Part shown: in pieces, positions 4,701 to 49,705 of the stretch
How the letters are laid out: each line of letters begins with the position of its first letter
Position numbering within the stretch: position 1 is the first letter of the stretch
Assembly: GCA_903838985.1 (NCBI GenBank)
Contig: CAIMAO010000002.1
Coordinates: 1,844 to 65,843 of the forward strand
Direction: 5' to 3'
Length of the DNA: 64,000 bases
Source: an uncultured bacterium
GTDB taxonomy: Bacteria; Patescibacteriota; Minisyncoccia; Phycocordibacterales; UBA9973
The notes under the pieces: model-generated
The model's input: the letters and a program-made list of their open reading frames with translations, nothing else
The model's database searches: none
Told to the model about the DNA's origin: nothing
Program-made: the position numbers and the translations under genes

Positions 4701-4705
4701 TTAAG

Positions 4706-8212: not shown

Positions 8213-8216
8213 AATT

Positions 8217-8651
8217 TTAATTATTTTCTTCTTTTTTCATATCAAGCACATCCAGACTCCAAGCCAAATCTCGAAGTTTGCTTCCACTAAGCCTTGAACC
8301 ATTTTGCAAGGTTTCCTGTTTTAACACTGCTGCTGCTTTCATTTCTTCTTGTTCTTGTTTGTTTACTTTATTTAGATGTCTTTTCCAAATATAGAGTCTG
8401 TCGTGTGATGCGAATTTTATTCCAGCCTCAATCATATTTATAAAAGGTTTTCCGTTTGGGTGATAAAAAGTAAGTGCTCCAGAAAGACCAGCAATTAATA
8501 AAATAGGAATAGCCCCTATCCATATTCCTAATAATTTAAACAATGTATAGCATAGTCCTGCCCCGCCAGCCAAATAAGCAAACTCCTTAAAAGTAAAAGG
8601 GCCGAAAATTTTATCCTCTATTTCCAAAAATTGTGGTACTTTGAATTGCAT
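8217..8651 (-). CDS. PrgI/VirB3-like small membrane protein
   Basis: 144 aa. The N-terminal ...FLEIEDKIFGPFTFKEFAYLAGGAGL... is followed by two TM helices, matching PrgI-family (VirB3 analog) architecture. Lies immediately upstream of the VirB4-like genes. Confidence 0.55.
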   Translation of the reverse strand: MQFKVPQFLEIEDKIFGPFTFKEFAYLAGGAGLCYTLFKLLGIWIGAIPILLIAGLSGALTFYHPNGKPFINMIEAGIKFASHDRLYIWKRHLNKVNKQEQEEMKAAAVLKQETLQNGSRLSGSKLRDLAWSLDVLDMKKEENN

Positions 8652-8742
8652 AAATTAGTTTCTAGGCGCTCGTGACTAGATTCTAGTTAATTATAATATA
8701 TATTTACTCTAGAAACTAGAAACTAAAACTATTTTGAACTTC

Positions 8743-9384: not shown

Positions 9385-9853
9385 TTTTAGAATTATTATT
9401 TATAGTATTATCTTCTGTGTTCACAACATCGTCGTTAGAATCGTAACTTCTTTCAAGAAAAGCAGAATAATCGCCACCAGAGAGTATAAAATCAACTGTT
9501 TGTTCATAACCTATTTTTTTGTTTATTAGCTTATCTTCTGCTTGTTTTGATAATTGGTAATATATGGGATTAAAAATTTTCTGAGCAACAATTTTAGCAA
9601 TTTCTTCTGCTTCATTTTTGCCTACACCTACATTGTTTTCAATGTTTAAAACATAGGAATCTCCTTCTGTTAATCCTAATAACATTAGGGCTGTTTCTAG
9701 TTGGAAATCATTTAATTCATTATCAGTAAGTAAGTATTTTTTGCTAATTTCTTCTGTAATTTGTTCCCAACGAGAAGAATTAATTGCATCTTGTGATTCT
9801 TTTGGTAGATTTTTTATTTCCTCATTAAATTTTTGTTTTAATTTTTCAGTCAT
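9353..9853 (-). CDS. Hypothetical acidic protein (paralog of 8743..9384)
   Basis: 166 aa. Shows the same pattern: AINSSRWEQI...LETALMLLGLTEGDSY...KIFNPI. Confidence 0.45.
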   Translation of the reverse strand: MTEKLKQKFNEEIKNLPKESQDAINSSRWEQITEEISKKYLLTDNELNDFQLETALMLLGLTEGDSYVLNIENNVGVGKNEAEEIAKIVAQKIFNPIYYQLSKQAEDKLINKKIGYEQTVDFILSGGDYSAFLERSYDSNDDVVNTEDNTINNNSKIEDIKNKFVI

Positions 9854-9858
9854 ATTTT

Positions 9859-12525
9859 TTAATGTGATTTTTCACCACTATCTAATTTTACATCCATTAT
9901 AATTTTATGTGCAGCTTCTTTATCAGCAGCTGGACTGTGTTTAAATGGATGTAACAATGATTGTATTACATAAGTTTTATCACTTGAAATTTTATTTGCA
10001 TAAGCTGTTTTTATTTCTCTGTTTGCCTTTTCTATTTCATGGTGAGCGTCAGGAATATCGACTGTTTCTAAATTGTTTATTGATCTTCCTTTAGTTGTCT
10101 TATTATTTTGTTTTCCTGTACCATCTTTTGTATCGGTGAAATATATTGTTTTTGTCTGGCCTTTTTGCAACGAGGAATCTGTTAGATAGGTTGTTTCAAA
10201 AGAGAGATCTCCATCCTTAATTGCTTTTTTACGTGCCTTTAATTCTGCTACTTTATCATTTGCTTCTTTCTTTGCCATAACCTTGGCAGGATCATCAACA
10301 TCCATTGCCGTAGCAGCAGCCAAAGCAGCGGTCTTTTCAGCTCCATCTGGTAATTTACTTGCATCACTTATTGCTTCTTTCTTTGCTTTAACCAAATCTG
10401 GGTTTGTAGTTTCTTTTGAATTTAAATCAGCAGCGTTTTCTCTTGCTGCCTTGATTTGTTTATCAAGTGAATCAAGATCATGTGAGTAGTTATTAAGAAC
10501 ACCTTGCAGATCCCTTTCTGTATTATTTAGATTTTGTTTCAATGTTGAATTTTCTTTTAGTTCAAGATCTTTTGCTCTCTTTTGTTTCTTTGCAACCTGA
10601 TCAGATTTCATCTTTTCATATCCACCTTCTTTTGCCTTACCGACGTTCTTTAATCCTATGTCAGATAAACCTTTGCCAGCTATTTTTACACCTCTTGCGT
10701 CAAAGCTAGCTTTACTCAAAGTATTGCCAACATTAAGGGCACCAAATTTACCTTGCTTTGCTCTGTTGATTGCCCAGTCTGAACTAGCAATTTTTTCTCC
10801 AACTCTACCAAGTGTTGCTCTTCCCAACATAGCTGTGCCACCCGTAGCTGCACCTAGTGCCAATCCACCAACCATCTTTGCTGCACCCATTACAGCTTTA
10901 CCCATTTCACCAGAATATTCCACTGCAATTTTTTTAGCCTGTTGTAACAACATCATAATTAATACGAAAGGTATTATTATTGTTAGCAGTTGCTCTTTTG
11001 TACTTGTGGTATCGTTGTACGTCACAACGTGACCCAGGAATTCTGTGAAACGTATTATTATGTATAAAAAGAATATAAATATTGGAGCTAAGAATGCATT
11101 TTTTAATAAATTATCCCACCAAGTTTTGTGTCCAAACCCAGGTATTTCAAAAGGTAGAGTGTATGAAACAAAGGCAATAGGTGCAAAAATCATAGAAAGC
11201 CAGAGTGAAATTACTCTTGCAACGAAAAGCACTGCTACTGCAAAGAAAATATAACCAGTATAAAGTGTGACGGCTATAAGTAAAAGTGTAATAAACAAGA
11301 AAAATCCCAACCCTTTTTGTTTGTAAGTTTCCATAGCAATTCTTTGGGGGTTGAATTTTTCAATTATTCCTATTGAGATGGATTTTTGTCCTGCATTACC
11401 AGATGCAGAATCTTTTAAAGTTCCGTCTGCATTTTTAGCAGTTGCGTCTTTTGAAGTTATACTATTGTAAAATACTTTTGCTAGGATGTTTGATCCATCA
11501 ATGATTACTTGTGTGGTAAATAAACTAAAGTTTATAAAAAGAGCAACAATGACAACCACACCCACTAGTTTTTTGTTGTCTGTGACATTTAAGCCAAGTA
11601 TTGTTTTAATTGCTACATAAATAAGTGCAATTATGAAAAATATATTTGCGATATCTCGTATTGATGCCCAACCCTCTTTCACGAAATCATTACTATATGA
11701 AGAGCTGTTAGTTGCATAATATATGAAGAAATCAAGAAAGCCCCCTCCTATTTCAGCAACCCAAGAAGAAGCACTCCAAAGCGAATAAAATACTTGTGCG
11801 ACACAACCTGAAATTTTGGTAATTCCGCAATCAAAACTTTCAACAGCATCATCTCCCGAGGAAGAGGAAGAACTTACTGGGGCAATTGTAGGATCTGTGT
11901 CACTTTTTTTAGGAGTATGAAAGTCCTTTGTTTTAACAACATCTGGATTATTATATCCTCCAAATATTGTCATAGATACTGTATAATCTGTTTCGGGTTC
12001 TAATTGTATTGGCCAATCTAGAGTATTGATGTTAAATTTATTTTCTGGTTTCATCCCATTAAAAGTCCAACCCTTTAATGGAAGAGGCATTTTAGGGTCG
12101 TCTTTTGAAGTCCATTGCAAAGATGCTAAAGGCGTGCTTCCCGCGTCTACATTTTTTTTTCTTATTTCAAATAGAAATGATTTTCTTGTATCTGTTGGGT
12201 AGTCTCGTATATTGTTGTACATTTTATATGTTTGGGGTGCACTTGGAATGATATTTTCTGTTGCTGTTAAGCAGGTATCACACTTTGTGTTGTCTGAATC
12301 TAATATTATCCAAAAATTAAAATTTGCTGATGTCCCATATATTTGATCTACATCGATACGAGAAAGTCTGTCAAACATGTCTTTTGTGTTTACTGCTAGG
12401 GCTTTATTTGATTCTATCTTTACAGCTAGTTGTTTGTTGTTAATTTTAATATTAAATGAAAAAGGAACTACAAAAATAGATATTATAGCTAACAATATTG
12501 AAATTTTTAATAAGTTTTTTTTCAT
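9859..12525 (-). CDS. VirB6/TrbL-like polytopic membrane protein with large N-terminal extracellular domain and long charged C-terminal tail
   Basis: 888 aa. Signal/TM at the N-terminus, about 6–7 TM helices in the middle (residues ~300–520), and a Gly-rich segment followed by a K/E-rich coiled tail. This architecture is typical of T4SS VirB6 homologs. Confidence 0.55.
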   Translation of the reverse strand: MKKNLLKISILLAIISIFVVPFSFNIKINNKQLAVKIESNKALAVNTKDMFDRLSRIDVDQIYGTSANFNFWIILDSDNTKCDTCLTATENIIPSAPQTYKMYNNIRDYPTDTRKSFLFEIRKKNVDAGSTPLASLQWTSKDDPKMPLPLKGWTFNGMKPENKFNINTLDWPIQLEPETDYTVSMTIFGGYNNPDVVKTKDFHTPKKSDTDPTIAPVSSSSSSGDDAVESFDCGITKISGCVAQVFYSLWSASSWVAEIGGGFLDFFIYYATNSSSYSNDFVKEGWASIRDIANIFFIIALIYVAIKTILGLNVTDNKKLVGVVVIVALFINFSLFTTQVIIDGSNILAKVFYNSITSKDATAKNADGTLKDSASGNAGQKSISIGIIEKFNPQRIAMETYKQKGLGFFLFITLLLIAVTLYTGYIFFAVAVLFVARVISLWLSMIFAPIAFVSYTLPFEIPGFGHKTWWDNLLKNAFLAPIFIFFLYIIIRFTEFLGHVVTYNDTTSTKEQLLTIIIPFVLIMMLLQQAKKIAVEYSGEMGKAVMGAAKMVGGLALGAATGGTAMLGRATLGRVGEKIASSDWAINRAKQGKFGALNVGNTLSKASFDARGVKIAGKGLSDIGLKNVGKAKEGGYEKMKSDQVAKKQKRAKDLELKENSTLKQNLNNTERDLQGVLNNYSHDLDSLDKQIKAARENAADLNSKETTNPDLVKAKKEAISDASKLPDGAEKTAALAAATAMDVDDPAKVMAKKEANDKVAELKARKKAIKDGDLSFETTYLTDSSLQKGQTKTIYFTDTKDGTGKQNNKTTKGRSINNLETVDIPDAHHEIEKANREIKTAYANKISSDKTYVIQSLLHPFKHSPAADKEAAHKIIMDVKLDSGEKSH

Positions 12526-12550
12526 TTTCTACTTTACAACTCGCCTCGGA

Positions 12551-14140
12551 CTATTTTTTGAAATAATATTCATACGCAGAAGCATTTTTTAAATCTGCAC
12601 TCGTATCTCTGACATCTATTATTTTACCATTAAAATATTCATACACGGTTAATTTATTTCCTGAAAGTTGAAGTTGATAGGCTGCGACATCTGGCTTGCT
12701 GACACGTATTTCTTTTCCTTTGCTATTAACATAACCGAAATCTCTTGCGAAAGTATCTGCTAAACCCCAAGCAAAATTTTGTAAATTATCTCCTTCTCCA
12801 TATCCATACAATTTTGCAAAGGCTGTGTCTGCTGTTATTTGTCTTACGAAAACTGTTTCAATACCTTCGTGATAATGCACTACTGCATCTCCCGGTGGTG
12901 TGATGGTTTGTCCTAGTTTTAATGGCGTAGTGTCTATTATGCCTGTGCTTGTGTTTGTGTTTCCATTGTTGTTATTTCCATAATTATTTCCATTGAAATT
13001 GTTCTGATTATTTATATTATTTTGATTGTCACTATTACCATTGTTATTATTCTGATTATTATTCTCATTGTTTCCATTGTTGTTGTCTCCGGTGGTATCA
13101 CTACTTCCATCATTTCCACCTCCTAAAGTTTCGTTATAGTTTGTTGTGAAATCTAAAGCAGAACCAGTGAAAATAGTTTCATTACTTTTTCCTAAATTAT
13201 TTTTTGCTACAGCCCTGAATTGATATATTGTCTTTGGATTTAAACCAGATAAATTAAAACTAATATTGCCATAAAGATTAGAAAATTTTCCTATGTCATA
13301 AGTTGTTTTACCCACTTCTTTCCAAACGGTTGGTGCGGTAGTTGTGTTTTCAGCTTCTTTGTATTCAAAAGAGGTTGTGACAGTTTTAGTGGAGCAATAA
13401 TTACCAGTTATTTTAGCAGAATCGGAAGTTATCATGGTTGATCCACTTGTGTTGACTGTGGTGGTGTAGCAATCAGTATGAAATTTCTTGATTATACTGG
13501 TTCCCCCATATGCTATGCCTTCCTTGTTTGATATTATTGCACAATAATAGTAAGTAGTGTTTGGAGAAAGTCCAGTTATTTTTTGAGAAAAAGTTTGTGA
13601 TAATGTGCTAGAGTTTATTTTTGTTAATTTTAGATCTCCTGTTGAACCCATATTTGTGCCATAAATATCATTACAATATATTGGAGAAATATCTGCTTTT
13701 GAGTATCTGAAATATGCAGTGAGTGGAGATAATGTTGAACTCGAAGTTTTGTAGCCCCCTACACCATTTAATGTTGCACTAGTTTCACCCAAGTTTGTAG
13801 CCTCATTTGTTTGAACAAAAAAATTTTCTTTTGCTGAGGTGGCAGTGTCTTTTATATAGCAAGATTTGAGCACATAAGGTGCTGGATCTCCGCCAAACAT
13901 GTTGTTGTTGCAGTCTATGCCACCGGCTATATTGTATTGATACTTGAAGACATTGTTAGCACCATAAGCGACATCTTTTGATCCAGCAAAACTGCAATGA
14001 ACACCTTCAGTTGAGCAAAGAGTGTAGCCATTTGGTAAATTTGGACTAGTTGAATAATATGACCAAGAAATAAGTGGTATCAAGAATAAAGCTGTTATTA
14101 ATATTTTTATTGTATTCTTTTGCATTTTAATAAACTCCAA
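12551..14140 (-). CDS. Hypothetical secreted protein with Asn-rich low-complexity linker
   Basis: 529 aa, signal peptide, long N/G/Q-rich tract. Overlaps the upstream gene by 14 nt. Confidence 0.5.
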   Translation of the reverse strand: MEFIKMQKNTIKILITALFLIPLISWSYYSTSPNLPNGYTLCSTEGVHCSFAGSKDVAYGANNVFKYQYNIAGGIDCNNNMFGGDPAPYVLKSCYIKDTATSAKENFFVQTNEATNLGETSATLNGVGGYKTSSSTLSPLTAYFRYSKADISPIYCNDIYGTNMGSTGDLKLTKINSSTLSQTFSQKITGLSPNTTYYYCAIISNKEGIAYGGTSIIKKFHTDCYTTTVNTSGSTMITSDSAKITGNYCSTKTVTTSFEYKEAENTTTAPTVWKEVGKTTYDIGKFSNLYGNISFNLSGLNPKTIYQFRAVAKNNLGKSNETIFTGSALDFTTNYNETLGGGNDGSSDTTGDNNNGNNENNNQNNNNGNSDNQNNINNQNNFNGNNYGNNNNGNTNTSTGIIDTTPLKLGQTITPPGDAVVHYHEGIETVFVRQITADTAFAKLYGYGEGDNLQNFAWGLADTFARDFGYVNSKGKEIRVSKPDVAAYQLQLSGNKLTVYEYFNGKIIDVRDTSADLKNASAYEYYFKK

Positions 14141-17024
14141 TCATTGATTCAAACGGTCCACCACGTGCGTCACCATCTGTTTTTCTACTTCCTACTGATA
14201 TATATCTATACTTTGAATCAGATTTTACACCAAATATATCTTCTGCAAATTTTAATCTCTCTTGTCCACGAACTTCTATGTAGTCAAGACCACTTACATG
14301 TCCAGCAGAGAAAAATACAAAACTTAAGAAACCAGGGCCAAATACATCATATTCATTTTTAGGTGTTGTGTTTTTATCCCCACTGTTCCATGGATCTGGC
14401 AGCATGGAACCCTCTTTTGTATATTTTTCATTGTTGTAATCATAAAGTATAGAAAAAGGATAAGTCATTCTTTTGACAGAGTTTATGTTGTAGTTTTTCC
14501 AATCTCTTCCTGACACAGCCGTACCAGCTGAGGGGAAATTTTTTATGTTGTCTGGATTTTGTAAAAATGCTTCACAGCCAGATGGACCTTTTAATAGTGT
14601 TTTATATACATAATCTTTTTTATCTATGATTTGTTTCGTCAAACTATCAACACTGGCTATGTCATCTCCATTCACCATTTCAGCAGAAATATTTCCAAAT
14701 TTATTTATTTGTGTTTTTAGTGCAGTTTCATAATCATCTCCACCATTTGAATATGTTTCATTTAAATCATCAACAGATTTTTTTATGTCGCTTAACGTAT
14801 TTATTACATTTTTTAATGAAGAAATTTTATTTTGATTGTCTACTATCATTTGAGCATAACCAGGTAACTGGTTGTAATCTGTGATAGCTTCAGTAGTGAC
14901 TGACGGAAGAATACCTGGGCCTGAAAAATATGTCTTATTGATTATTTCTGCATATCTACTTAGAATTGTGTTCATGCCATTAACAAATCCACCATAACTT
15001 TCTGTATTTATAGCTGTTGAGTCATTTCCATTTTCATAGTCTGGCATCACTCCAGTAAACACATAAACTGCTGTTGCATAATATCCTCTAAGTTTTTCAG
15101 AATCATCAGGGCTATTAATAAGACTTGCAATATAACCTACTGCAACTCCGACAACTGCTCCGATTATTGTACCAACAACAGGAACAGCTGAACCTACAGC
15201 TGCACCTGTTGCCGCCGCTGTCCCTACTCCAAGCAAAGCAGCAACAGGCGCAGCAAGAGTCAATCCTGCAATCGCACCAGCAGCCATTGGCGCGATAGAT
15301 GTTATGGTGCCTAAGATAGCATCCATGTTTTTGTCTTTTAAGTCTTCTTTTGTTTCTGGGACAACTTTATTTAATGCTGCACTTAATACTTTTTGAGAAT
15401 CACCTTCCCATCCTGGATGTGGTCCTGGGATACAGTAATCTAGTTGATATATTGCGGGGATAAGTCCGTAGGCGTTAGATATTCCTGTTTTATCATCAAG
15501 TTTATAATTATTGCCGTCCGTTGTAGACATTAATTCTTTATTTTGTTGTGTAAGTTTGTCAGAATATGTTCTTTGTTCATCTATTAAAGCTTGGGTAAGG
15601 TCTGTACGAATATTAAAATCTGGATTTACAGAAAGCCAAGATGTTGTGAGTTGGGCTGGGGAGAAGTCTTGCTCTGTTTGGGTTCTGATTGTGTTGTTGT
15701 TTAAGGTGTCTGAGCTAGAGCCAGTTAAATCATCAGTGTTAATTTCAGAGAACCCCTTTTCCATAAGGCTGGAAGAGAATTGAGCCAGAAGAGCATTTGT
15801 GACTGCTTCTATTGCGTCATTTAGATCTTGGGCGCTTAACAGAGAATCTTTTGTGGTTGTCATTGTGCTTGTAGCTGCATCAGCTATCATTGATCCAGGT
15901 GTGACGTATTTCCATTGTTTGCAAAGTCTATATATATACATATATGGAAGATATGCTTCTCCAGTTTTTTCATTATAAGTAGCTTCACTACCTCCAGTAT
16001 TAGGATGGTTGCTTCTTTCTGTTAATGCTTTTTGGTTTTCTTCTTTTGTGACACCTTGTGGATCAACACAACGTTGATCTCCAAGAAAACCATTTGCTTG
16101 TGATAATGCATCATGATATTTGTCTGCGGTTGATTGGACTGTTCCTTGTAGTCTCTTTTGTAGTTCATTATCTGCCATTAATTTAAAACCGAGAGGATTG
16201 TTTGCTGGGCTCTGTGTCATAGCTGTCCAAGCGTCCCACCCACCTTGGCTGAAATCTTGTTGGAAGGTTGATGCAGAATATTCAGGATTAGTATCCTGTA
16301 TTAGTTTATCTAGAGAATAGGTAGCATTATCTTGGAATTTACTATTGAAAGCATTAGCTGTATTTTTTAGCCATTCTTTACCGAAAGGAGAACCAGAAGC
16401 TGTTATTTCTGTGCCAAACTGTAGCACTTCATTTTTAGCTATATCACCAAAGAATTTTGTAGGGTCTTGGATAAAAGCAGGGCTACCATTAAAGCCACTC
16501 TTTATCCAATTTACAGTGCTTACAGTAATTTTTTGTAAAAGCATTTTTGTCACGATACGTCCTATGGCTGCGGTGCAGGTAGAGTTGTCTTTGAGAGCAG
16601 AAATATCTTTTTTTGTATCTTGTGCTAACTTTTTTGTATCTCTTATGTTATCTGCCGCCGCTGTTCCTTCTATGTTAACATTGACAGAATCACTTAGACT
16701 AGTGTTGTTTTTTATAATGTCTTCGACTTTAGGGGTAATTGAATCTATTAAGTATTCAGTTCCTGCTGCTAACCCCCCTGATAGAATCATAGTTTTTGCA
16801 TTTCCCCCTTGTATTGCGTTACCAAGTGCTGCTACTGTTCCAGTGAATAATAATTTTGTGGTTAAGCTCGTGTCTCTACATTGAGGTAAAGAAGAAATAG
16901 AAAATGAATGACCCGAGATACTTTGAGCTTCTGCCTTTTTGGGTATAAAACCAAGAGGCATAGAAATAGTACTGACAATCAATATGAATGAAATTATAGA
17001 ATTTTTTAAATATTTCTTTTGCAT
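14127..17024 (-). CDS. Large secreted/membrane protein (965 aa) with a Gly/Ala-rich TM cluster
   Basis: Signal peptide. A hydrophobic Gly-zipper segment ...IAGLTLAAPVAALLGVGTAAATGAAVGSAVPVVGTIIGAVVGVAVGYIASL... Member of the T4SS-like operon. Confidence 0.5.
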   Translation of the reverse strand: MQKKYLKNSIISFILIVSTISMPLGFIPKKAEAQSISGHSFSISSLPQCRDTSLTTKLLFTGTVAALGNAIQGGNAKTMILSGGLAAGTEYLIDSITPKVEDIIKNNTSLSDSVNVNIEGTAAADNIRDTKKLAQDTKKDISALKDNSTCTAAIGRIVTKMLLQKITVSTVNWIKSGFNGSPAFIQDPTKFFGDIAKNEVLQFGTEITASGSPFGKEWLKNTANAFNSKFQDNATYSLDKLIQDTNPEYSASTFQQDFSQGGWDAWTAMTQSPANNPLGFKLMADNELQKRLQGTVQSTADKYHDALSQANGFLGDQRCVDPQGVTKEENQKALTERSNHPNTGGSEATYNEKTGEAYLPYMYIYRLCKQWKYVTPGSMIADAATSTMTTTKDSLLSAQDLNDAIEAVTNALLAQFSSSLMEKGFSEINTDDLTGSSSDTLNNNTIRTQTEQDFSPAQLTTSWLSVNPDFNIRTDLTQALIDEQRTYSDKLTQQNKELMSTTDGNNYKLDDKTGISNAYGLIPAIYQLDYCIPGPHPGWEGDSQKVLSAALNKVVPETKEDLKDKNMDAILGTITSIAPMAAGAIAGLTLAAPVAALLGVGTAAATGAAVGSAVPVVGTIIGAVVGVAVGYIASLINSPDDSEKLRGYYATAVYVFTGVMPDYENGNDSTAINTESYGGFVNGMNTILSRYAEIINKTYFSGPGILPSVTTEAITDYNQLPGYAQMIVDNQNKISSLKNVINTLSDIKKSVDDLNETYSNGGDDYETALKTQINKFGNISAEMVNGDDIASVDSLTKQIIDKKDYVYKTLLKGPSGCEAFLQNPDNIKNFPSAGTAVSGRDWKNYNINSVKRMTYPFSILYDYNNEKYTKEGSMLPDPWNSGDKNTTPKNEYDVFGPGFLSFVFFSAGHVSGLDYIEVRGQERLKFAEDIFGVKSDSKYRYISVGSRKTDGDARGGPFESMIGVY

Positions 17025-29422: not shown

Positions 29423-29429
29423 AAAAACA

Positions 29430-29508
29430 AAAAGCACAAAATTTTTCGTCCTGCGCCCTTCCCGGATTACCGGGTGGGACCCTCGGACAGAAAAAATTTT
29501 GTGCTTTT
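29430..29508. repeat. GC-rich palindromic element (family 1) nested in an 18-bp inverted repeat; probable terminator hairpin after the M23 peptidase gene
   Basis: Flanks aaaagcacaaaatttttc / gaaaaaattttgtgctttt. Core gtcctgcgcccttcccggattaccgggtgggaccctcggaca. Confidence 0.8.
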
Positions 29509-29708
29509 TGTTTATAATTTTCTCCTAAAAACTAGAGCTTAGTTAAATAAAAGAGAGCACGACCTTGACTTATGTCTATCAAGGAAAGGAGAGAGATTTG
29601 TACTCTCTCCTATTTATACCAAGAATAACTCTTGATAATTTTTAAGCTCTAGTTTTTAAAAGAAAATAATTTCTCGCAATAGCCCAACAAAATTAATTTT
29701 GTTGGGCT

Positions 29709-29773
29709 AACAACGAGGTCAAACAGATTTTATTTGTTTGACCAGTATTTATGTTAACCCTAACCCGTTGTGC
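29709..29773. repeat. 65-bp structured direct repeat, copy 1 (3' of cassette 1)
   Basis: Identical to 31057..31121. Predicted fold: outer stem caacgagg/cccgttg enclosing hairpin tcaaacag-attttatt-tgtttga. Confidence 0.85.
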
Positions 29774-29990
29774 TTTCTCAGCGTGGAGGCTCTGCTTCCT
29801 CTTGGCTCACCATTTTAAAGAAAATGGTGACAAACTTTTTACCCGTCCTTTTATTCCTATGGATTTTTAGGAAACATTTTTCACCAGATGTGAAAAATGA
29901 ATGTACTGTTGCGGTGTTCCGCTTTTGTCTGGAGAGGTAAACAGTTTTACCTCGAGGTTTTACACCCAGACTGCACCCATCTCTCCTTAA

Positions 29991-30323
29991 TTACCCTAAG
30001 GTAACTAAGAGCCACTTGATAGTGGCACCTTCTGGTAAGGTCGAACAACCTTCCGGAAGGCGAGGCCCGACATACTGGCCTACAAGAGCTTTGTCATCTT
30101 TTTTAAGGACGACATTTACTCTGTTTGCCGGCACGTCTACTCCCAAGACATTACTGAACACATTAGCTGTGTCAGCATGTCCGACTGCTGACATAGCGTC
30201 AGTAGCGAGAGTCTTAGCCTGCTCTAAAGAGATTTCCTCAACATGAATATCTATCGGAAAGACAGAAATCATATTGAGGGAGATCGCGTTCAAAATAAAC
30301 ATGAACGTTTTCTCCTCTAGCAA
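29991..30323 (-). CDS. Hypothetical protein in GC-rich cassette 1 (110 aa)
   Basis: ORF with ~45% GC against a ~33% background. ...ISLEQAKTLATDAMSAVGHADTANVFSNVLGVDVPANRVNVVLKKDDKALVGQYVGPRLPEG... It may resemble the DUF1874/STIV-B116-like family, but this is unverified. Confidence 0.5.
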   Translation of the reverse strand: MLEEKTFMFILNAISLNMISVFPIDIHVEEISLEQAKTLATDAMSAVGHADTANVFSNVLGVDVPANRVNVVLKKDDKALVGQYVGPRLPEGCSTLPEGATIKWLLVTLG

Positions 30324-30484
30324 CTACTATCTCCTCAACTTCCTCGCAGTCACACTACGATTTATATGAGTATTTAAGTTACTAGCTCTGTTGATTTTAA
30401 AGGTTGATCAACTAACCGCTTCCAACTCACTTGAGTCAGAAGTATATCCCGCAGAAACCACTGCGTTGCTAGGGTTTTTAATTT

Positions 30485-30856
30485 TTAGTCTGTGTAACGA
30501 TTAATTCTGATCATTACATCATCTGGCATATCAGCCAGTTTAATTTCCGCGCGGAATCCCCTTGGGTCGCTATAAAAGGAAGATAAAATAATTTTTTCCC
30601 CTAAAGAATATAAAATTAAATATTCTTTATTTTCCAACACCTGAGATTCTACTTTTCCTCCTTCTCCCGTATAAAAAAAAGAGAAATCTTTGCAATACTT
30701 TATTTGTATTGTAAACATAGTATCTAATTCCCACATTTTTTTTTCATGGAATTCTTTCCATGAAATATCCAAAGGGAGGTTTTTAAAACCAAGACCAAAT
30801 CTTTTCAGATTTGTCTCGAAATCGAAAGCATCCATTAATTTTTGGAATATACTCAT
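30485..30856 (-). CDS. Hypothetical protein in cassette 1 (123 aa)
   Basis: ORF preceded (on the minus strand) by a strong SD ggtgaggagg and by the shared leader repeat. Confidence 0.45.
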   Translation of the reverse strand: MSIFQKLMDAFDFETNLKRFGLGFKNLPLDISWKEFHEKKMWELDTMFTIQIKYCKDFSFFYTGEGGKVESQVLENKEYLILYSLGEKIILSSFYSDPRGFRAEIKLADMPDDVMIRINRYTD

Positions 30857-30900
30857 TTTTTCCTCCTCACCATTTTACGTCCGTGAGGTAGACATTTGTT

Positions 30901-31010
30901 TTTTATGATTAGTCAGTTGTTTAAAAGTAGTTAAATAACCACACTTAAACAACTAACCAACCACAAGTAAAAAATGAAATTTACTCTCTTCTATTTAATT
31001 TTCAAAAAAC
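30901..31010 (-). promoter_or_regulatory. Shared ~110-bp 5' leader/promoter repeat, copy 1 (upstream of 30485..30856)
   Basis: About 85% identical to 34631..34746 (ttttatgat...gtttaaaagtagttaRaataaccacRcttaaacaactaaccaac...aatgaaRttt..ctct.ttc.atttaattttcaaaaaac). Both copies sit 27–44 bp upstream of a minus-strand start codon with a GGAGG-type SD. Confidence 0.6.
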
Positions 31011-31056
31011 TCGCAATGAATTTTCCATTTAATTAACCCAATCAAATGAAAAACTC

Positions 31057-31121
31057 AACAACGAGGTCAAACAGATTTTATTTGTTTGACCAGTATTTAT
31101 GTTAACCCTAACCCGTTGTGC
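31057..31121. repeat. 65-bp structured direct repeat, copy 2 (3' of cassette 2)
   Basis: Identical to 29709..29773. Confidence 0.85.
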
Positions 31122-31467
31122 CTTACGGCAGATGAGGACACAAAATTTTTATTGTAATTTTATGTTTATCCTCACGCCAAATAAATTTGACTTCCTCTTT
31201 GTTTTATCGGTAGGCATCCGACTAGTTATAAGGTCACAATCCACTTATGTAAACTCTCGGTCTACTTCTGCTAAAAGCCTAACACTCACACCTTGTCACC
31301 AACCGTATGGTATTGTGAGATGGTACATTTGTGTATTTTATGTCTATAATGTTTTCCTTACGGACGAAAAAGAATTATAGACCACGTGCACAACCAGAGA
31401 CCTCCTTATTTTTTTGATAATAATTCAATTATGGGTCTGGTAGCCCAAAAATTGTCGTTAATTAATT

Positions 31468-32841
31468 TTAGAGTTTGTTTACACCAACTCCGCCCGTACT
31501 GATCGCAAGATCAGTCAGAACTTTATTTGTACACTCAACTACAAAGGCATGCATTTTTGTACCTGTAAAATCCTTCATAGTTAAGTTTATTTTATCGTCC
31601 CCATCAGTAATAATAACGAGCTCGGGACGATAGGTGGAACCTGCTTTTATTATTTCTTCGATCCTTTGTTGCGCCAGCTTCGCGCATCCCGAGATATCTG
31701 TACTTCCACCTGAATAGTTTTTCTCGGTAAAGTGCTTGATTAACTCCTTAGCTTCAGTTGGGGTAGAGGAGTGATGTTCCTCCTTCAATGTAGTATCGAA
31801 GAGCCTTACATAAAGCTCAGCCTCTCCCTCAATCACCGCTTTTAAACGATTTATGAGGATTCCACCAGCCTTAAATATTCTCTGGCCAGATCCCATTGAT
31901 CCGGAGCAGTCTATAATAATATAAAGGAGCTGCTTCTTTTCAATGGTCGTCACTCTCTCTCTTACCATACTAGAATGAGTGACAATTCTGTATGTCCGAT
32001 AAGTGCTCGGTAGCGCCCATTCGGATTTTATCAACTTATTCATTTCGCCCGTGTGCGCTATTGGGCGGTTCCGGACACTATCACCGGCCGGATCCGGTTC
32101 TTGTTTTTTACTCTTACGCACTTGCATGCGCGTAAGTTTATCTAGATTTCTTGAAATCTGGAGCATAATCTCCTTACCTTTCAAAAAATCTTCCGCAAGT
32201 TTCATTTTTTGGAGACCGTCATCTCCTTTTCCTTCACTCGCTCCCGAACCAGTGTCCTGGTCAGGATCAAGCAGTTGTTTTTCATCTTTGGATAAAGAAT
32301 CAACTTCATCCATAAGATTATTCAGCTGCTCGCCGACTTTTTCTGACTGATCATTGTCGGTAAATATTGGTAACGGCTCTCCGGCCTCTCCACCACCTTG
32401 TCCACCTTGCTTTTTTGACAAAAGTTTCAGTAGACTCATGGCTTGTTCAAGTGGAGAACTACCAGGGAAACAATTAAGATCAATTGTCTGCAAAAAATCG
32501 CAAACGTTTTGATGATACCTCATCTGTTCCCGAGTTCTACCTTCGATTGCTTCAAACCGACTCTTGGTTGATACTTCAGTCTTTGATTTTTTATCGCGAC
32601 GGAGGTATTTCCAATTACCGGAAGTGTCGGCAGCAGGTAAAGTTTCCTCAACATTTTTCCTTACAACTTGTTGATAGGATGATGGAGGATTTACCTGACC
32701 GCCAGCAGCCAAATTACATAAGTCCGCGACTAAGTCCCTTGAAAAGGATTTAACGCCAACCTTATCTCCAACTTCCCGCATTTCTTCCGCACTAGGCGAA
32801 AGATAAGTTACGGGAGGAGAAGTTCGAAATGTAAATTGCAT
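31468..32841 (-). CDS. VWA-domain protein, CoxE-like (von Willebrand factor A with MIDAS motif)
   Basis: 457 aa. C-terminal VWA with ...LLYIIIDCSGSMGSGQ... (DxSxS MIDAS) and ...VIITDGDD.... The N-terminal ~250 aa is charged/low complexity, as in CoxE-family partners of MoxR ATPases. GC-rich. Confidence 0.75.
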   Translation of the reverse strand: MQFTFRTSPPVTYLSPSAEEMREVGDKVGVKSFSRDLVADLCNLAAGGQVNPPSSYQQVVRKNVEETLPAADTSGNWKYLRRDKKSKTEVSTKSRFEAIEGRTREQMRYHQNVCDFLQTIDLNCFPGSSPLEQAMSLLKLLSKKQGGQGGGEAGEPLPIFTDNDQSEKVGEQLNNLMDEVDSLSKDEKQLLDPDQDTGSGASEGKGDDGLQKMKLAEDFLKGKEIMLQISRNLDKLTRMQVRKSKKQEPDPAGDSVRNRPIAHTGEMNKLIKSEWALPSTYRTYRIVTHSSMVRERVTTIEKKQLLYIIIDCSGSMGSGQRIFKAGGILINRLKAVIEGEAELYVRLFDTTLKEEHHSSTPTEAKELIKHFTEKNYSGGSTDISGCAKLAQQRIEEIIKAGSTYRPELVIITDGDDKINLTMKDFTGTKMHAFVVECTNKVLTDLAISTGGVGVNKL

Positions 32842-32864
32842 GTGTTTTCTCCTTCTCGCGATTT

Positions 32865-33938
32865 TTATATGCGGGTATTTTCAAGTGCCAGTTTTTGAGT
32901 CTCGGAGGTTTTCTCCGAAACTGTGTCTCTTAATTTTTTACGACGGTCAGACAAACCGTCGGTTACTTTTAGTGATGAAATTTCATCATTAAGAGCTACT
33001 AATTTTTTTGCCACTTGTAATAATTTGATTGGAGATGTTGCGTTTACTCTTGACTCATTTAATAACTCGCCGAATTTTGTCTCGGCAAGAGAAAGATTTT
33101 TTTCAGCAGCAGCTCTCTCCATCGCAGTCTCAAGGTCTTTGCTGATTGTTTCTGCAAGACCTTCAAGTCCAGGCAGAAACCGTAAATCAGTAAGGTCCTG
33201 TTTCTCTACTTTTTCACCACCACGCAGTGTAGCGGCAGTTTGACAGATCTGAAAGGAATGGACTGCTGTACGAGGGCTCACAAAATTGCCCTCAGCAGTT
33301 GCTTTTGCTAAAATCTCTGCGAGAACGGCCTTAAAGCCGTTAAGAATCGGACCGTTTAACCGACCGGCGACTTTTTCAAACATCTTCAAATAAGAGGACG
33401 CTGAATAATCTTTCCATTTCAAGTTTAATTGAAGCGGAAAGCGCTCAATAAGAGCATGTGCCGCTGGGCCTAAACCAGAAATTTCCTGAGGTTCTTTATT
33501 TGTTAAGCAAATTATTAGCTCGGTTCTCATTTTAAATCTCTGCGAACCGTTTCTTAATTCCTTAGCAGTCAAAACGTCTTTTAGAGCTAGAAGCACCGAC
33601 GCCGGAGCATCAAATAATTCTTCGAATACTGCTATCCGAGAATTTAAAAAAGATTTCTCTGGATAGTATTCAAGAATTTTATCTTCCTCTAATTTTTTGA
33701 AGTTCAATCCTCCGAAGAGACGGCTTTCATCCATCCCTTCACCAAAAAATTGGTAGAAGGTATCAGAATCGAGATTCAAACCATCAATAACTGCCTTTGT
33801 CATCTCAGATTTGGCGTGTCCGCCCGGTCCGAAGATGATAATGTTTTTTTTACTTGTGAAAGCAAGTGCAAAAATACGCACTACCTCGTCGACAAACACA
33901 AACGAGGTTTCAAGAATATTTTTAATTTTCTCTAACAT
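32865..33938 (-). CDS. MoxR-like AAA+ ATPase (CoxD-like)
   Basis: 357 aa. Walker A IIIFGPGGHAKSE. Divergent Walker B and sensor region ...IAVFEELFDAPASVLLALKDVLTAKE.... ...ELIICLTNKEPQE...ALIERF..., aligning with the MoxR ...LATQNP...LDRF... region. Adjacent to the VWA gene. Confidence 0.75.
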   Translation of the reverse strand: MLEKIKNILETSFVFVDEVVRIFALAFTSKKNIIIFGPGGHAKSEMTKAVIDGLNLDSDTFYQFFGEGMDESRLFGGLNFKKLEEDKILEYYPEKSFLNSRIAVFEELFDAPASVLLALKDVLTAKELRNGSQRFKMRTELIICLTNKEPQEISGLGPAAHALIERFPLQLNLKWKDYSASSYLKMFEKVAGRLNGPILNGFKAVLAEILAKATAEGNFVSPRTAVHSFQICQTAATLRGGEKVEKQDLTDLRFLPGLEGLAETISKDLETAMERAAAEKNLSLAETKFGELLNESRVNATSPIKLLQVAKKLVALNDEISSLKVTDGLSDRRKKLRDTVSEKTSETQKLALENTRI

Positions 33939-34135
33939 TTTTACTCCTGCCCATTTAACGCCGGGACCAGCAATTGATTTGAGTTTGAGCGCTTTATTTC
34001 CGCTTCATTAAGGGCGGCAATAAACCTGGCACTCCTCGCTGTCTTGTTGGTAGCGAATAACCCAGGAGTCATGTGTGCTTACTCACACATGTCCTGAAAA
34101 TGATTTTCATTTTTGTGTTGAGTAAGCAACATTTT

Positions 34136-34603
34136 TTACCAGGGACAAGTCTCAGTTTCGGTGCCTGGTATCACCGGTTCGCTACCCCAAATGAGTGCGT
34201 GTTCACTCCAAAACTTTCTGGAGTTTTGGGTAGCTTTCCGATCCCAGGGCTCTGGTTCAGCCAATTCGCCAATGAAGGCGGTAACCAAAATAAAAGTCCC
34301 GGGCTGTTCATCAGCAGTCTTCAGAATGACTACCACCGACGAGCTTGGTTCGGGTTGGCGATTTTTAACAAATCGCGTTAATCCAAACCGTTTGGGCCGT
34401 TGTGCAAATACAATTACATCGTCAGGCCCAGTGACGACACAAGTTGATTCACCTATGATTCGGTCAAACCTGACTTCCTCAACGATGAAAGTTCTTCCTT
34501 TTGAATTAATTTTTTCTAGCGCCTCGGGAAGAACGTCGAGGACACTAGCATGAAGATGTGATTGATAACGATCAACCACATCTTCACCACTTTTTAGCTT
34601 CAT
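34136..34603 (-). CDS. Hypothetical protein, first gene of the MoxR-VWA cassette (155 aa)
   Basis: GC-rich ORF with SD aaggaga. Preceded by leader repeat copy 2. No family recognised. Confidence 0.5.
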   Translation of the reverse strand: MKLKSGEDVVDRYQSHLHASVLDVLPEALEKINSKGRTFIVEEVRFDRIIGESTCVVTGPDDVIVFAQRPKRFGLTRFVKNRQPEPSSSVVVILKTADEQPGTFILVTAFIGELAEPEPWDRKATQNSRKFWSEHALIWGSEPVIPGTETETCPW

Positions 34604-34630
34604 TTTTCTCCTTTCTCCACTTCTGTGGAG

Positions 34631-34746
34631 TTTTATGATGAAAGTTGGTTAGTTATTTAAAAGTAGTTAGAATAACCACGCTTAAACAACTAACCAACTA
34701 TATTATTTGGAAATAATGAATTTTTTCTATTCAATTTTCAAAAAAC
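34631..34746 (-). promoter_or_regulatory. Shared 5' leader/promoter repeat, copy 2 (upstream of 34136..34603)
   Basis: See 30901..31010. Confidence 0.6.
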
Positions 34747-35349
34747 ATATCCTTACTACAAAACAGGCCTCTCTCCTTTTTGTACTTTCATTGTTTTCTC
34801 CTTTTAAAACAATGAACTCCTTCGTAAAGACATTTCAGATCACAAAAGTGGGTTAAGCTCTTATGGTCTGCCTATGTCTTTGCCATTCTTTATTACCCTG
34901 TACTAAGTTTTTAATTTAGTAGTGGTGAATGACTCTTACACGGTTGTGAATTTATCTGTGTTTTTGGTTTCGGTTTGCGGCTTTCACCAAAATCCACAAT
35001 TCACGGTGCAAACAGATTTCAAAAGATTGTCTCTCATCCCACTCCCTCCTTTTTCCTAGCTTACCGGCCTAGGTGCCGCCTCATCGATTATTCAGGATTT
35101 ACCCTGAGCGTAGTCGAAGGGTCAGAGGTGGGTATCAATCTTCTGCTATCTCCTTTAATGAACCTTGCCCGTTCTCTCTTGAGGCGGGTCTTAACTTATC
35201 TGCAAATAGTATAGCATAATAGAAATGTTTTGTCAATGAAACAGAAAAGAAAGTTTGTAAAGGCTAAAAAAGCCTTATTTATCAATATAAAATAGTTATC
35301 CACTTTGTCATATTTGTGTGGCAAAAGCATTCATGTTAAGATTGTTAAT

Positions 35350-36117
35350 ATGAATGAAGAAAACATTTTAATCCAAGCGGGTCTTTCAGAGGAGCAATCC
35401 TTGGCTTATCAATCTTTATTGGATAAAGGGCCTCAAAGGGCTAGTGATCTTGCAAAATGGACTGGGATAAAACGTGGGCTTATCTATAAAGTATTAGAAC
35501 AATTAGAATCTATGGGTTTGGTGTCTAAAAATGGTGGTGTGGGAACTGTGGCCATCTTCTCCCCCGCCCATCCTAGTCTTTTACTTTCAAATATAGAACG
35601 TAAGGAAAAAGAGATTGCTTTGACTAAAGAAATGCTTGTAAGCTCCATTGGTTCTTTGTCTTCAAAATTTAATTTGATTACTGGCAAACCCAATGTGCAG
35701 TTTTTTGAAGGAGAAGAAGGAGTTAAGAAAGTATTAGATGATACATTAAATGTTCCTAAGTATACAGAGATATACACTTATGCTGATCTTGAAGCTATTT
35801 TGAAATATATTCCAAATATAAACCAGGTGTATTCAGATCGTAGAGAAAAATTAGGCATAAAGAAAAAAGGGCTACTTTTAGATAGTCCTAAGGTGCGTGA
35901 ATTGATAAAAAGCTATCACACCGAGACTACGGATACAAAATTGATACAATATAATGTTTCAGAATTTGAAACGATAATGCAGATTTATGAGAATAAGATT
36001 TCTTATATAACTCTGAAAGAAAACTCGATGATTGGAGTAATTATTGAAGACCCATTTATTTATAAGATGCACAAAAATATTTTTGAGCATCTTTGGAATA
36101 TTACTCCTTCTCTTTAA
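35350..36117 (+). CDS. TrmB-family transcriptional regulator
   Basis: ORF 35305..36117. The likely start is MNEENIL at 35350. N-terminal winged HTH ...LSEEQSLAYQSLLDKGPQRASDLAKWTGIKRGLIYKVLEQLESMGLV... is typical of TrmB. Confidence 0.6.
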   Translation: MNEENILIQAGLSEEQSLAYQSLLDKGPQRASDLAKWTGIKRGLIYKVLEQLESMGLVSKNGGVGTVAIFSPAHPSLLLSNIERKEKEIALTKEMLVSSIGSLSSKFNLITGKPNVQFFEGEEGVKKVLDDTLNVPKYTEIYTYADLEAILKYIPNINQVYSDRREKLGIKKKGLLLDSPKVRELIKSYHTETTDTKLIQYNVSEFETIMQIYENKISYITLKENSMIGVIIEDPFIYKMHKNIFEHLWNITPSL

Positions 36118-48679: not shown

Positions 48680-48790
48680 AAACTTGTGAAACTAATGTTT
48701 TTTCACCACGAAAATCTTTTGCTAAAGATTTTCTCTGTCCGTCGCCGTCGCTCCTACCAAGGGTTCAAAAACATTAGTTTCACAAGTTTA
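48680..48790. repeat. Perfect 23-bp inverted repeats (aaacttgtgaaactaatgttttt / aaaaacattagtttcacaagttt) enclosing a 65-bp segment, between xerC stop and xth start
   Basis: The enclosed segment carries an AT hairpin (gaaaatcttttgctaaagattttc) plus gtccgtcgccgtcgctcc, the same architecture as the yidD/jag repeat. It overlaps the xerC stop codon and is likely a terminator or MITE-like element. Confidence 0.75.
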
Positions 48791-49705
48791 TTTGCGGCTA
48801 TGAAATTTCTTATGCACTTCCAGTAATTGTTTGTCAGTAATGTGTGTATAAATTTGAGTTGTAGAGATATTTGAATGTCCGAGCATCATTTGCACACTCC
48901 TTATGTCTGCACCGTTTTGCAGTAAATCAGTTGCGAAGGAATGACGGATGATATGTGGTGTCACTTTTTTTGATATGCCTGCTTTTATCGCGTAATATTT
49001 TACAATACGTTCAAGTGAACGGGGTGTTAATCGTGTGGCTTTGCTTTTTGATATTTTTGAAAGTTGAATGAACATCGCTTCTTCCATATCTTTCCTTTTT
49101 GCTAAATATTCCTTAATTGCTTTTTTTGCGGTATCAGATAAAAAAACTACACGCACTTTTTCTCCTTTTCCTCTGATAGAAAATTCGCCTTTTGATAAAT
49201 CTAAATCTTTATTTAATGAAGAAAGTTCTGATACACGAAGTCCTGTAGAAAAAAATAATTCAAGGATTGCTTTGTCTCGAAGATTTTTTAAATCAGTTCC
49301 ATTTGGGCCGGAGAGAAGCCTACCCAATTCTTCTCCTGTAATTAAATCTAAACTCCTTTCTTTTATTTTTGCTAATTCTATTCTATCAGGGGAGAGGGCA
49401 GAGATTTCACGTTTGATTAAATATTTTAAAAAAACACGAAGTGCAATCAAATAATAATTTTGAGTATTTTTTTTCATCGTTGCACTTATTTGTCCTCGTA
49501 CTTTTGTGCCGGATTGTCTGTTTAAAAAAAGTCTGAATTCTCGCACTTTTTCATCTGTGATATCTTTTATTTTTTCTGTTTTACTAAATTTAAAAAAGCG
49601 AGTTAAATACCTTTCATAATTTTCTACAGTTTTTAAACTTGAACCTTTTTCAATTTCTAGATATTCCAGAAATTCTCTTTTGTATTTTTCTATCTCAGAC
49701 GCCAT
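48788..49705 (-). CDS. xerC: Tyrosine site-specific recombinase XerC/XerD
   Basis: 305 aa. C-terminal ...RHSFATDLLQNGADIRSVQMMLGHSNISTTQIYTHI... with the catalytic R..H..R..Y signature. Confidence 0.85.
   Translation of the reverse strand: MASEIEKYKREFLEYLEIEKGSSLKTVENYERYLTRFFKFSKTEKIKDITDEKVREFRLFLNRQSGTKVRGQISATMKKNTQNYYLIALRVFLKYLIKREISALSPDRIELAKIKERSLDLITGEELGRLLSGPNGTDLKNLRDKAILELFFSTGLRVSELSSLNKDLDLSKGEFSIRGKGEKVRVVFLSDTAKKAIKEYLAKRKDMEEAMFIQLSKISKSKATRLTPRSLERIVKYYAIKAGISKKVTPHIIRHSFATDLLQNGADIRSVQMMLGHSNISTTQIYTHITDKQLLEVHKKFHSRK

Follow-up and report, generated by a model that had tools for sequence, protein, structure and literature searches.

MoxR-type AAA+ ATPases encoded beside CoxE-type VWA proteins are known from the vWA-MoxR ternary conflict systems and from CoxD-CoxE (PMC7159879), and a family of ring nucleases, AcrIII-1/Crn2, was described by Athukoralage et al. 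(10.1101/778746). Relatives of both were found together in a 64,000-nucleotide stretch of DNA from an uncultured member of the Patescibacteria (assembly GCA_903838985.1, contig CAIMAO010000002.1; this whole stretch is hereafter called the window). Between 29.4 and 35.3 kb of the window, the minus strand carries a core operon of three genes, p155, MoxR and VWA, followed by an add-on unit of an orphan open reading frame (ORF), p123, and a predicted ring-nuclease gene; a leader sequence precedes each of the two gene groups and a structured repeat (R68) follows each. In an initial annotation the groups were taken for two cassettes of a GC-rich foreign island (the add-on as cassette 1, the core as cassette 2), resembling integron cassettes or phage morons.

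The core operon agrees with the vWA-MoxR systems in having a MoxR protein of the bpMoxR type beside a CoxE-type VWA protein with its metal ion-dependent adhesion site (MIDAS), in the conserved adjacency of the two genes and in a conserved third protein, but differs in that this third protein is a single domain of 155 aa and not VMAP, iSTAND, FtsH or a beta-propeller, in that no effector domains are fused here, and in its structured RNAs, which are undescribed for those systems. The ring-nuclease protein is like AcrIII-1/Crn2 in family, catalytic His, size and relatives in phage contigs, but is here encoded on a Patescibacteria chromosome and paired with an orphan ORF. With phage morons the add-on would share the form of a small unit with a promoter-like 5′ end, a hairpin-rich 3′ end, a composition that is foreign in the B116-like ring-nuclease gene (host-like in p123) and a counter-defence-type gene, but it lies outside a prophage, and its signals appear to have been copied from the neighbour operon and not brought by the cargo. 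As in integrons, the units have one orientation and a structured repeat of about 65 nt behind each of them, and the content of the slot varies, but intI, attI and Pc are missing here, the unit has a promoter-like leader of its own (so called from its consensus only), and the repeat is present in two copies. Finally, REP/BIME hairpins and the hammerheads of operons resemble the elements found here, in that structured elements of 40-76 nt follow genes in one block, but R68 belongs to no known family and, as far as seen, is repeated within its own locus only.

We favor, at about even confidence, the reading that the R68 copies and the leaders are RNA-level expression and processing signals and not integron-like recombination sites. 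On this reading, 29.4-35.3 kb would form one RNA-rich minus-strand transcription block, in which the core operon is divergent from a TrmB-like regulator, with TrmB co-regulation presumed, and would comprise as RNA parts a promoter with an RNA of about 450 nt, the p155 leader, a pseudoknotted MoxR leader and a structured 3′ region. The variable slot behind VWA would have taken up, in this lineage, the add-on of p123 and an AcrIII-1/Crn2-type ring nuclease, whose 5′ end received a copy of the p155 leader and which came to be bracketed by two 65-nt 3′-junction elements, presumably through duplication. The copied leader would give the add-on p155-type control of transcription and translation together with protection of the mRNA 5′ end, and the copied 3′ element would act on RNA as a 3′-end, processing or insulating structure between units, a role that may be likened to that of the hammerheads or genome-specific repeats at the same junctions in relatives. 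What would be new is a moron-like add-on using copied operon signals and intercistronic RNA elements, the kinds of element themselves being known.

Leader 2 (34631..34746, minus strand), upstream of p155, contains a promoter-like box, TTGAAAATTGAATAG, and a 26-bp 5′ RNA hairpin (34643-34699); leader 1 (30901..31010, minus strand), upstream of p123, keeps the box as TTGAAAATTRAATAG, a promoter call made from the consensus only, and contains a 29-bp hairpin at about 30904-30966. The leaders aligned in 94 of 122 columns, which corresponds to 77% identity with gaps counted and 90% ungapped, so that the figure of about 85% given earlier is a fair one, and cores of 48 nt and 22 nt were identical at 94% and 95%, respectively. 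In both, a short hairpin comes after the imperfect hairpin of 26-29 bp, and its 3′ arm directly adjoins a strong Shine-Dalgarno (SD) sequence (CUCCAC/GUGGAG at 34615-34630 for leader 2 and CCUCAC/GUGAGG at 30865-30888 for leader 1); strong SDs had already been reported for both minus-strand cassettes and were seen again here. Leader 2 folded at -30.0 kcal/mol in the sense and -21.7 kcal/mol in the antisense direction (3 G.U pairs), and leader 1 at -33.4 and -11.8 kcal/mol (6 G.U pairs), respectively. The same asymmetry with G.U pairs was found in two related loci, L003 and L006 (loci from other sources are cited by such numbers), and little or none in L008 and L011.

Upstream of p155 in L003, L006, L008 and L011, the order of parts was a box TTGACAATYGAATAG, a long hairpin of other sequence, an SD and the ATG; in L007 the box was kept without the long hairpin. 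In L033, which is from a different organism and has a VWA protein 79% identical to that of the window, the p155 leader could be aligned, with TTTGAAAATTGAATAAA followed by AGTTAGTTAGTTCTT/AAGAACTAACTAACT. This orthology, the conserved architecture and the folding of the sense strand argue that leader 2 is the ancestral 5′ region of p155, and it most likely acts as RNA. Conservation between the two copies is good in the box and the hairpin alone, the pattern expected from selection on function. Since leader 1 is 94% identical to leader 2 in the core and leader 2 is visibly further from its ortholog in L033, leader 1 is, judged from these alignments, a later within-lineage copy of the p155 leader, made locally and placed before p123. 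An exact-pattern scan of IMG/VR found no leader, and a search for an operator word common to the three promoter regions gave nothing convincing.

The core operon was compared with ten loci obtained from a genome-collection scan with MoxR and with six more reached via p155 and VWA relatives. MoxR was 68-82% identical in the ten genomes, namely nine Patescibacteria metagenome-assembled genomes (Moranbacteria, Uhrbacteria, Saccharibacteria, Parcubacteria, Paceibacterota and unclassified Patescibacteria) and one contig binned as Methanosarcinales, and 54-82% identical over all related loci. MoxR, VWA and p155 were present together in 8 of the 10 MoxR-scan loci, the exceptions being L004, in which no p155 was found, and L012, whose contig ends within MoxR. 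The gene order is p155-MoxR-VWA in class A, and p155 follows VWA in class B (L005, L009 and L010). A divergent TrmB-like gene was present in 6 of the 10 loci (L005, L006 and L009-L012); the core recurred in the six further loci, with a TrmB-type neighbour in L026 and L028 and a distant one (a faint match) in L030, and a homolog of the 996-aa protein of the window was often located beyond TrmB. Cassette 2 is a conserved syntenic locus of many Patescibacteria and not an exchangeable module; when relatives were compared for presence or absence of each cassette, as had been proposed, the add-on was absent from those examined and the core recurred.

The add-on consists of p123 (30485..30856, minus strand), which has a strong SD and a host-like GC content at third codon positions (GC3) of 0.29, and of a gene of the STIV B116/DUF1874 family, that is the AcrIII-1/Crn2 ring-nuclease family (29991..30302, minus strand; PF08960, E = 1.4e-13, 51.2 bits against a cut-off of 26). 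The gene coordinates of the initial annotation were correct, except that the second gene, drawn as 29991..30323, probably starts at the ATG at 30302 (103 aa) and not at the TTG at 30323. A search of 5.8 billion proteins with p123 returned only p123 itself, and a search of 1.84 billion representatives returned one weak match, a repeat protein (E = 1.4e-4). The B116-like protein matched Csx16 in PADLOC and 2j6b, 2x4i, 2j85 and 6scf in the PDB. Its segment SAVGHADTA aligned with NSIGHDST of 2x4i, placing a His at chain position 47, and H47 of SIRV1 gp29 is the absolutely conserved catalytic His (10.1101/778746); the RLPEG motif is also kept. By these matches the protein is a member of the AcrIII-1/Crn2 family with the catalytic His retained. 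Its nearest relatives, 43-59% identical, are encoded in phage contigs, three of them of 164-459 kb. No CRISPR array or cas gene was found among the called genes, among the repeats of 27-38 kb or in the Rfam scan of the window, no dedicated CRISPR search having been run.

Neither p123 nor the B116-like gene was present in the related loci of other organisms that were compared, and the gene behind VWA was a different one in every genome; the modularity claimed for the region was borne out to this extent, by relatives that lack the add-on genes and a slot whose content always differs. The accessory genes of ten relatives matched no Pfam family and gave one PHROG match only, and the 200-aa accessory genes of L026 and L028 were unrelated to each other. 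As a side observation, positions 10156-10226 (plus strand) of L028 contain a 70-nt match to bacterial 23S rRNA 2136-2205 (43.5 bits, E = 8e-10), inside and on the opposite strand to the called 200-aa gene behind VWA, so that this "gene" may be an rRNA-like RNA.

R68 is a 68-nt direct repeat with one mismatch, of which the first copy (R68a, 31057..31124, minus strand) lies where the VWA 3′ region meets the add-on unit and the second (R68b, 29709..29776, minus strand) behind the add-on. Direct comparison confirmed the reported 100% identity over 65 nt (29709-29773 and 31057-31121); these were the only two copies in the window, against 0 expected by chance. R68 had been described as a stem enclosing a hairpin, and it does fold into a 7-bp outer stem, around two inner hairpins, a mini-hairpin of 4 bp and a hairpin of 9 bp; in this three-stem fold the two halves of the repeat do not pair with each other. 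On the coding strand it begins with GCACAAC and ends with CGTTGTT, loosely matching RYYYAAC (six of seven positions) and, compared as GTTGTTG/A, GTTRRRY (four of seven). Each copy is preceded by a small hairpin, GCC-GUAA-GGC in one case and GCU-GAGAA-AGC in the other, and what comes next on the minus strand is UCGUUGUUGAGUUUUUC after R68a and a further hairpin after R68b; the terminator scan flagged the R68 hairpin on the plus strand only.

Rfam models run on R68 and its flanks at E <= 10 gave hairpin noise only and no ribozyme family, the hammerhead core CUGANGA...GAAA...UH was not found by a pattern scan of the island (R68 itself has no CUGAUGA core), and a search of the block for RNA that could pair with R68 returned its own stems only. 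An exact-pattern scan of IMG/VR for the R68 hairpin found none, and a scan of JGI metagenomes with an R68 20-mer gave only one unrelated chance match (L031). Among contigs from the population, several short ones end at R68, all longer ones carry cassette 1, and no empty site was seen. In L032, whose VWA protein is 82% identical, the 3′ region of VWA agrees with that of the window over about 230 nt, after which the sequences diverge and no R68 is present. Just 5′ of R68b, at 29787-29826 (minus strand), we also observed a motif GGUGAGCC followed by a hairpin GAGG-AAGCAGAG-CCUC; the motif recurs in L012 (2786-2824), L003 (about 1020-1050) and L006 (about 9800-9825), between p155 and the MoxR leader, a placement that looks as if small RNA modules were shuffled within these loci.

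At the corresponding junctions of relatives, other structured elements were found. Two of them are type III hammerheads with a full catalytic core, one (4196-4250, 44.5 bits) in the spacer that separates MoxR from VWA in L004 and one (3381-3435, 39.3 bits) directly behind the L032 accessory gene. L026 has a weaker, hammerhead-like match (12558-12644, 25.4 bits), placed after the VWA 3′ region and before the accessory gene; we read its stem II as containing the 40-nt repeat of that locus, which is present there in three copies. The L026 element occupies the position equivalent to R68a, and the L032 hammerhead that equivalent to R68b. Hairpin-containing junction repeats of 40-76 nt, 80-100% identical within a locus, were also found in L005, as a 62-nt repeat (100%) after MoxR and after VWA (11191-11252 and 12847-12908) and a 76-nt repeat (89%) after the p155-like gene and the accessory gene (15386-15461 and 16684-16759); in L011, as a 64-nt repeat (80%) starting at the MoxR and VWA stop codons (11067-11130 and 12574-12637); and in L010, as a 40-nt repeat (93%; 9472-9511 and 14169-14208). 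The grouping of R68 and the repeats of L005, L010, L011 and L026 into one family was tried and rejected, because they share neither sequence nor fold. The positions of R68a and R68b are sites of RNA-processing elements in relatives, and the repeats of relatives flank core genes, for which reasons an RNA-level junction element is favored over a recombination site.

Several results weigh against this preference. R68 folded at -17.4 kcal/mol in the sense and -20.1 kcal/mol in the antisense direction, that is with no strand asymmetry, and no homolog was present in any other locus examined, so that an action of R68 on RNA is presumed; all three hammerheads scored below the Rfam gathering score of 48.5. 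A single, simple duplication cannot account for an identity of 100% in R68 together with one of 77-94% in the leaders, and strong constraint or gene conversion is needed to explain perfect repeats beside diverged leaders. Perfect 65-nt repeats around 1.28 kb of lineage-specific DNA are also the product expected from a circle recombining with a single chromosomal R68, and the count of R68 copies covers 64 kb of a 218-kb contig. As to the leaders, the promoter scan gave 15 candidates in total as against 12.7 in shuffled sequences, which is not above chance, and we infer promoter activity of the boxes from consensus matches only.

The circle just mentioned is the basis of an explanation that we regard as unlikely, namely that R68 is an att- or attC-like DNA site at which a circular element carrying p123 and the ring nuclease recombined with the chromosomal R68 through a recombinase encoded elsewhere. 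The repeat brackets exactly the lineage-specific segment, its ends loosely resemble the RYYYAAC and GTTRRRY consensus, it folds equally well on either strand, several short population contigs stop at it, and the slot behind VWA varies among genomes. However, no integrase or recombinase is encoded within 14 kb of the island according to the Pfam tables for genes across the window, where a nearby one had been proposed as a check of the cassette interpretation, and the sole tyrosine recombinase in the window (48788-49705), 14 kb off between housekeeping genes, is Xer-like with N-terminal SAM domains. Moreover, the longer population contigs all have the cassette and show no empty site, the repeat is limited to two copies in 64 kb and was missing from the viral and JGI collections for the two sub-patterns scanned, a promoter-like leader copied from the neighbour operon is unexpected for an incoming cassette, and in L005 and L011 the analogous repeats lie beside MoxR and VWA, which are core genes. 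The likening of the 3′ repeat to attC was not supported, R68 having no full-length dyad symmetry and ribozymes or repeats occupying the same junctions in relatives, nor was that of the units to integron cassettes, with no intI adjacent, a leader that is the 5′ region of p155 itself and a syntenic core.

We consider it decidedly unlikely that R68 itself represents an undescribed class of elements that process RNA autonomously, for example by self-cleavage, in the role that hammerheads have at these junctions in relatives, with strong constraint keeping its copies identical. Its compact three-stem fold of ribozyme-like size, the small hairpin of differing sequence before both copies, the identity of the copies despite diverged leaders and the hammerheads that L026 and L032 have at the corresponding sites, and L004 between MoxR and VWA, agree with such a role, but neither an Rfam ribozyme match at the permissive threshold nor a CUGAUGA core was obtained, the lack of homologs in other loci leaves no covariation test possible, and the junction repeats of other genomes have neither its sequence nor its fold. 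Still less probable is a reading of the shared ends as functionless remnants of an old tandem duplication of a whole unit, the genes of the second copy having been replaced. Both ends of the units are shared in the same order and orientation, as it predicts, but their interiors share nothing, identical R68 beside diverged leaders is contrary to one old event unless selection or gene conversion is added, the leaders keep the box and the hairpin only, and similar arrangements arose independently in several genomes. That the island is a prophage remnant with cassette 1 as its moron is very improbable in our view: homologs of p155 and of the B116-like protein occur in phages, cassette 1 comes with a promoter-like leader and with hairpins at the 3′ end, and a strain variant (L019) has a terminase gene about 5 kb left of the island, but no phage structural, replication or integrase genes lie in or beside the island, which has housekeeping genes on both sides, MoxR relatives were not found in IMG/VR or among GenBank phages, and the core is syntenic with its large-protein and TrmB neighbours across many Patescibacteria. 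Of the phage-moron comparison made earlier, the moron-like character of the add-on may hold, whereas its location is not a prophage and its signals were apparently copied from the neighbour operon. Beyond the RNA-signal reading that we prefer, we offer as speculative, and as unlikely in its full form, the idea that the MoxR-VWA-p155 loci serve as an expression platform of a kind not described before, with accessory genes inserted behind or between the core genes and set apart by short, genome-specific structured repeats or hammerheads, and with R68 as either a new self-processing RNA class or an exchange site.

Further structured RNAs of the block were located upstream of p155 and of MoxR. The best site of the promoter scan was a sigma-70-type candidate (35208..35236, minus strand), TTGACA-17-TATACT with an upstream TG and 11 of 12 matches, and the same box is found next to TrmB in L006, L009, L010 and L011, thus in five loci with the window. 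It is followed by a putative structured non-coding RNA of about 450 nt (34750..35205, minus strand; no ORF, fold z = -3.6), parts of which recur in L011 (7743-8289) and L007 (142-308) at E about 1e-8. This RNA contains a covarying stem (AAGACAU/AUGUCUU and AGGACAU/AUGUCCU) and had no Rfam match; it may be a long 5′ untranslated region or a separate RNA. Directly upstream of MoxR, a leader RNA of about 150 nt (33945..34130, minus strand) was modeled with helices P0-P5 and a kissing-loop pseudoknot from covariation in 11 loci, with invariant GGYGAUUC, ACCAAYAAGAC and GCGCUMAA. Over these loci 90.9% of the cells were paired as against 70.6% in shuffled alignments, with 0 of 500 reaching the value and slid controls at 35-46%; double changes were present at 31 of 45 pairs, and RNAalifold on the nested part gave compensatory changes at 22 of 29 pairs. 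In nearly every locus the six nucleotides of the P0 loop are complementary to the P2 loop (L011 fits less cleanly), and the two loops co-vary (CCUACC:GGUAGG, CCUAUC:GAUAGG, CUUACU:AGUAAG and UCGACU:AGUCGG). No Rfam family matched at E <= 1, and a different, class B leader precedes MoxR in L004, L005, L009 and L010. By its covariation the MoxR leader is a well-supported new pseudoknotted RNA motif, and it looks like a cis-regulatory element, either a riboswitch or a protein-binding element.

Behind VWA, the structured 3′ region (31200..31467, minus strand; fold z = -2.8), in which the roughly 230 nt conserved with L032 are located, contains a hairpin motif at 31285-31319 (minus strand) with conserved UAC and GUGAYAAGG. 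Its stem covaries in six loci (the window, L032, L026, L007, L011 and L028), with variants CUCACA/UGUGAG, CCCACA/UGUGGG, CCCCUA/UAGGGG and others, and it is preceded by an SD-like GGAGG and a non-conserved mini-ORF. Downstream of R68b, a stack of very stable stems (29425..29709, minus strand) is built from inverted repeats, namely a 13-bp hairpin (29680-29709), a 25-bp stem (29514-29541/29643-29670) and a perfect 22-bp stem (29425-29446/29492-29513) followed by a U-run, the 22-bp and 25-bp stems each enclosing further hairpins. The 568 nt of 29423-29990 folded at -217 kcal/mol as against -128 kcal/mol for shuffled sequences (z = -13.3); the arm mismatches of the long stems form G.U pairs on the minus-strand RNA only, and both stems are unique in the window. 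The 22-bp stem with its U-run, a clearer terminator than the R68 hairpin, probably ends the block and is probably shared with the convergent M23 peptidase gene. Terminator-like hairpins followed by T numbered 15 as against 4.8 expected, about three times the number in shuffled sequences. A recurrent purine-rich RGGAGAGAG was also seen in non-coding RNAs of the window and of relatives, in many cases at the base of a hairpin (window 35050, 34780 and 29612, minus strand; L026 8325, 8575 and 8690; also L007, L009, L010, L011 and L033).

Of the proteins encoded in the core, the MoxR-type AAA+ ATPase (32865..33938, minus strand) matched PF20030 (bpMoxR, E = 7.7e-17) and AAA_5. The VWA protein (31468..32841, minus strand) has an intact MIDAS motif (DCSGS, of the form DxSxS) and an unassigned N-terminal region of 300 aa; it has 361 relatives and is CoxE-type in relatives, and its predicted structure (pLDDT 85.7) gave structural matches for the C-terminal 150 aa only. 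The protein p155 (34136..34603, minus strand) matched phrog_23674 and has 352 relatives, all from Patescibacteria where the source is named; it matched no Pfam, PADLOC or NCBIfam family, and a search of BFVD with its structure model found nothing. A weak fold signal points to a possible RelE/BECR-like RNase fold, and Arg, His, Glu and Asp residues are invariant in the alignment of relatives. Homologs of p155, about 42-43% identical, are encoded in the jumbo phages Cronobacter phage GAP32 (L001, 4986-5459) and Pseudomonas phage Astolliot (L002, 4941-5411), in both of which they sit among tRNA genes, which may point to a function of the family in connection with RNA or tRNA. The ATPase of GAP32 and its neighbour beside the p155 homolog were considered as counterparts of MoxR and VWA and were found not to be homologous to the proteins of the window. 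The divergent TrmB-like winged-helix regulator is encoded at 35305..36117 (plus strand; PF01978, E = 3.8e-12).

The flanks of the block encode chromosomal housekeeping proteins (RNase P, YidC, PNPase, S15, ClpP, trigger factor, RNase Y and the CCA-adding enzyme) and cell-wall proteins, among them the M23 peptidase whose gene is convergent with the island on its left; the window is part of a bacterial (Patescibacteria) chromosome and is identical to a portion of a 218-kb ENA metagenome scaffold. Its GC content, said to rise from about 33% to about 45%, is indeed elevated and not uniform, but 29520-35300 has 39.5% overall as against 33.1% elsewhere in the window (about 2.7 standard deviations above the mean), and 45% is reached only in local peaks. 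The island is about the GC-richest 5.8-kb stretch of the window, the maximum being 40.0% for the stretch starting at 28751, and the increase starts at about 28.0 kb, within the M23 peptidase gene. Foreign composition was borne out at synonymous sites for four island genes, GC3 being 0.34-0.46 for p155, MoxR, VWA and the B116-like gene (0.46 for the last) as against 0.16-0.29 in host genes, whereas p123 is host-like. In every host with comparable flanks, the GC content of the module exceeded that of the flanking genes by 7-25 points, and GC3 was likewise far higher in related modules (for example, 0.61 as against 0.20 in L012). High GC travels with the module wherever it is located and is therefore not evidence for a recent arrival in this genome; its cause may be repeated transfer, biased gene conversion or selection.

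Rfam at gathering scores detected 4 tRNAs only in the whole window, and at E <= 1 gave hairpin noise only on the island. Elsewhere in the window, a type IV secretion-like cluster (1958-17024, minus strand) encodes PrgI-like and TraC-like proteins, a VirB4/TraG-type ATPase, an NlpC/P60 protein with a pilin-like domain and several very large proteins without a family. The strain variant L019, of the same species, departs from the window inside a 354-aa gene, left of window position 24951, and carries at 12611-16094 genes for a TAGT-domain protein and a large terminase. This phage-like segment, about 5 kb left of the island, varies between strains.

If the reading favored here is true, the RNA start and end signals of an operon can be copied to recruit a gene unit, and integron-like cassettes should not be called from repeats alone. 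The operon is widespread in Patescibacteria and unusually dense in structured RNA, and its MoxR-VWA remodelling machine, together with a possible RNase, would be tied to control at the RNA level, in organisms that do not grow by themselves. With an AcrIII-1-type ring nuclease on such a chromosome, it may also be asked if signalling by cyclic oligoadenylates plays a part there. In our assessment, the main interest lies in the RNA-rich operon and in the possibility that its junction repeats are new processing or exchange elements.

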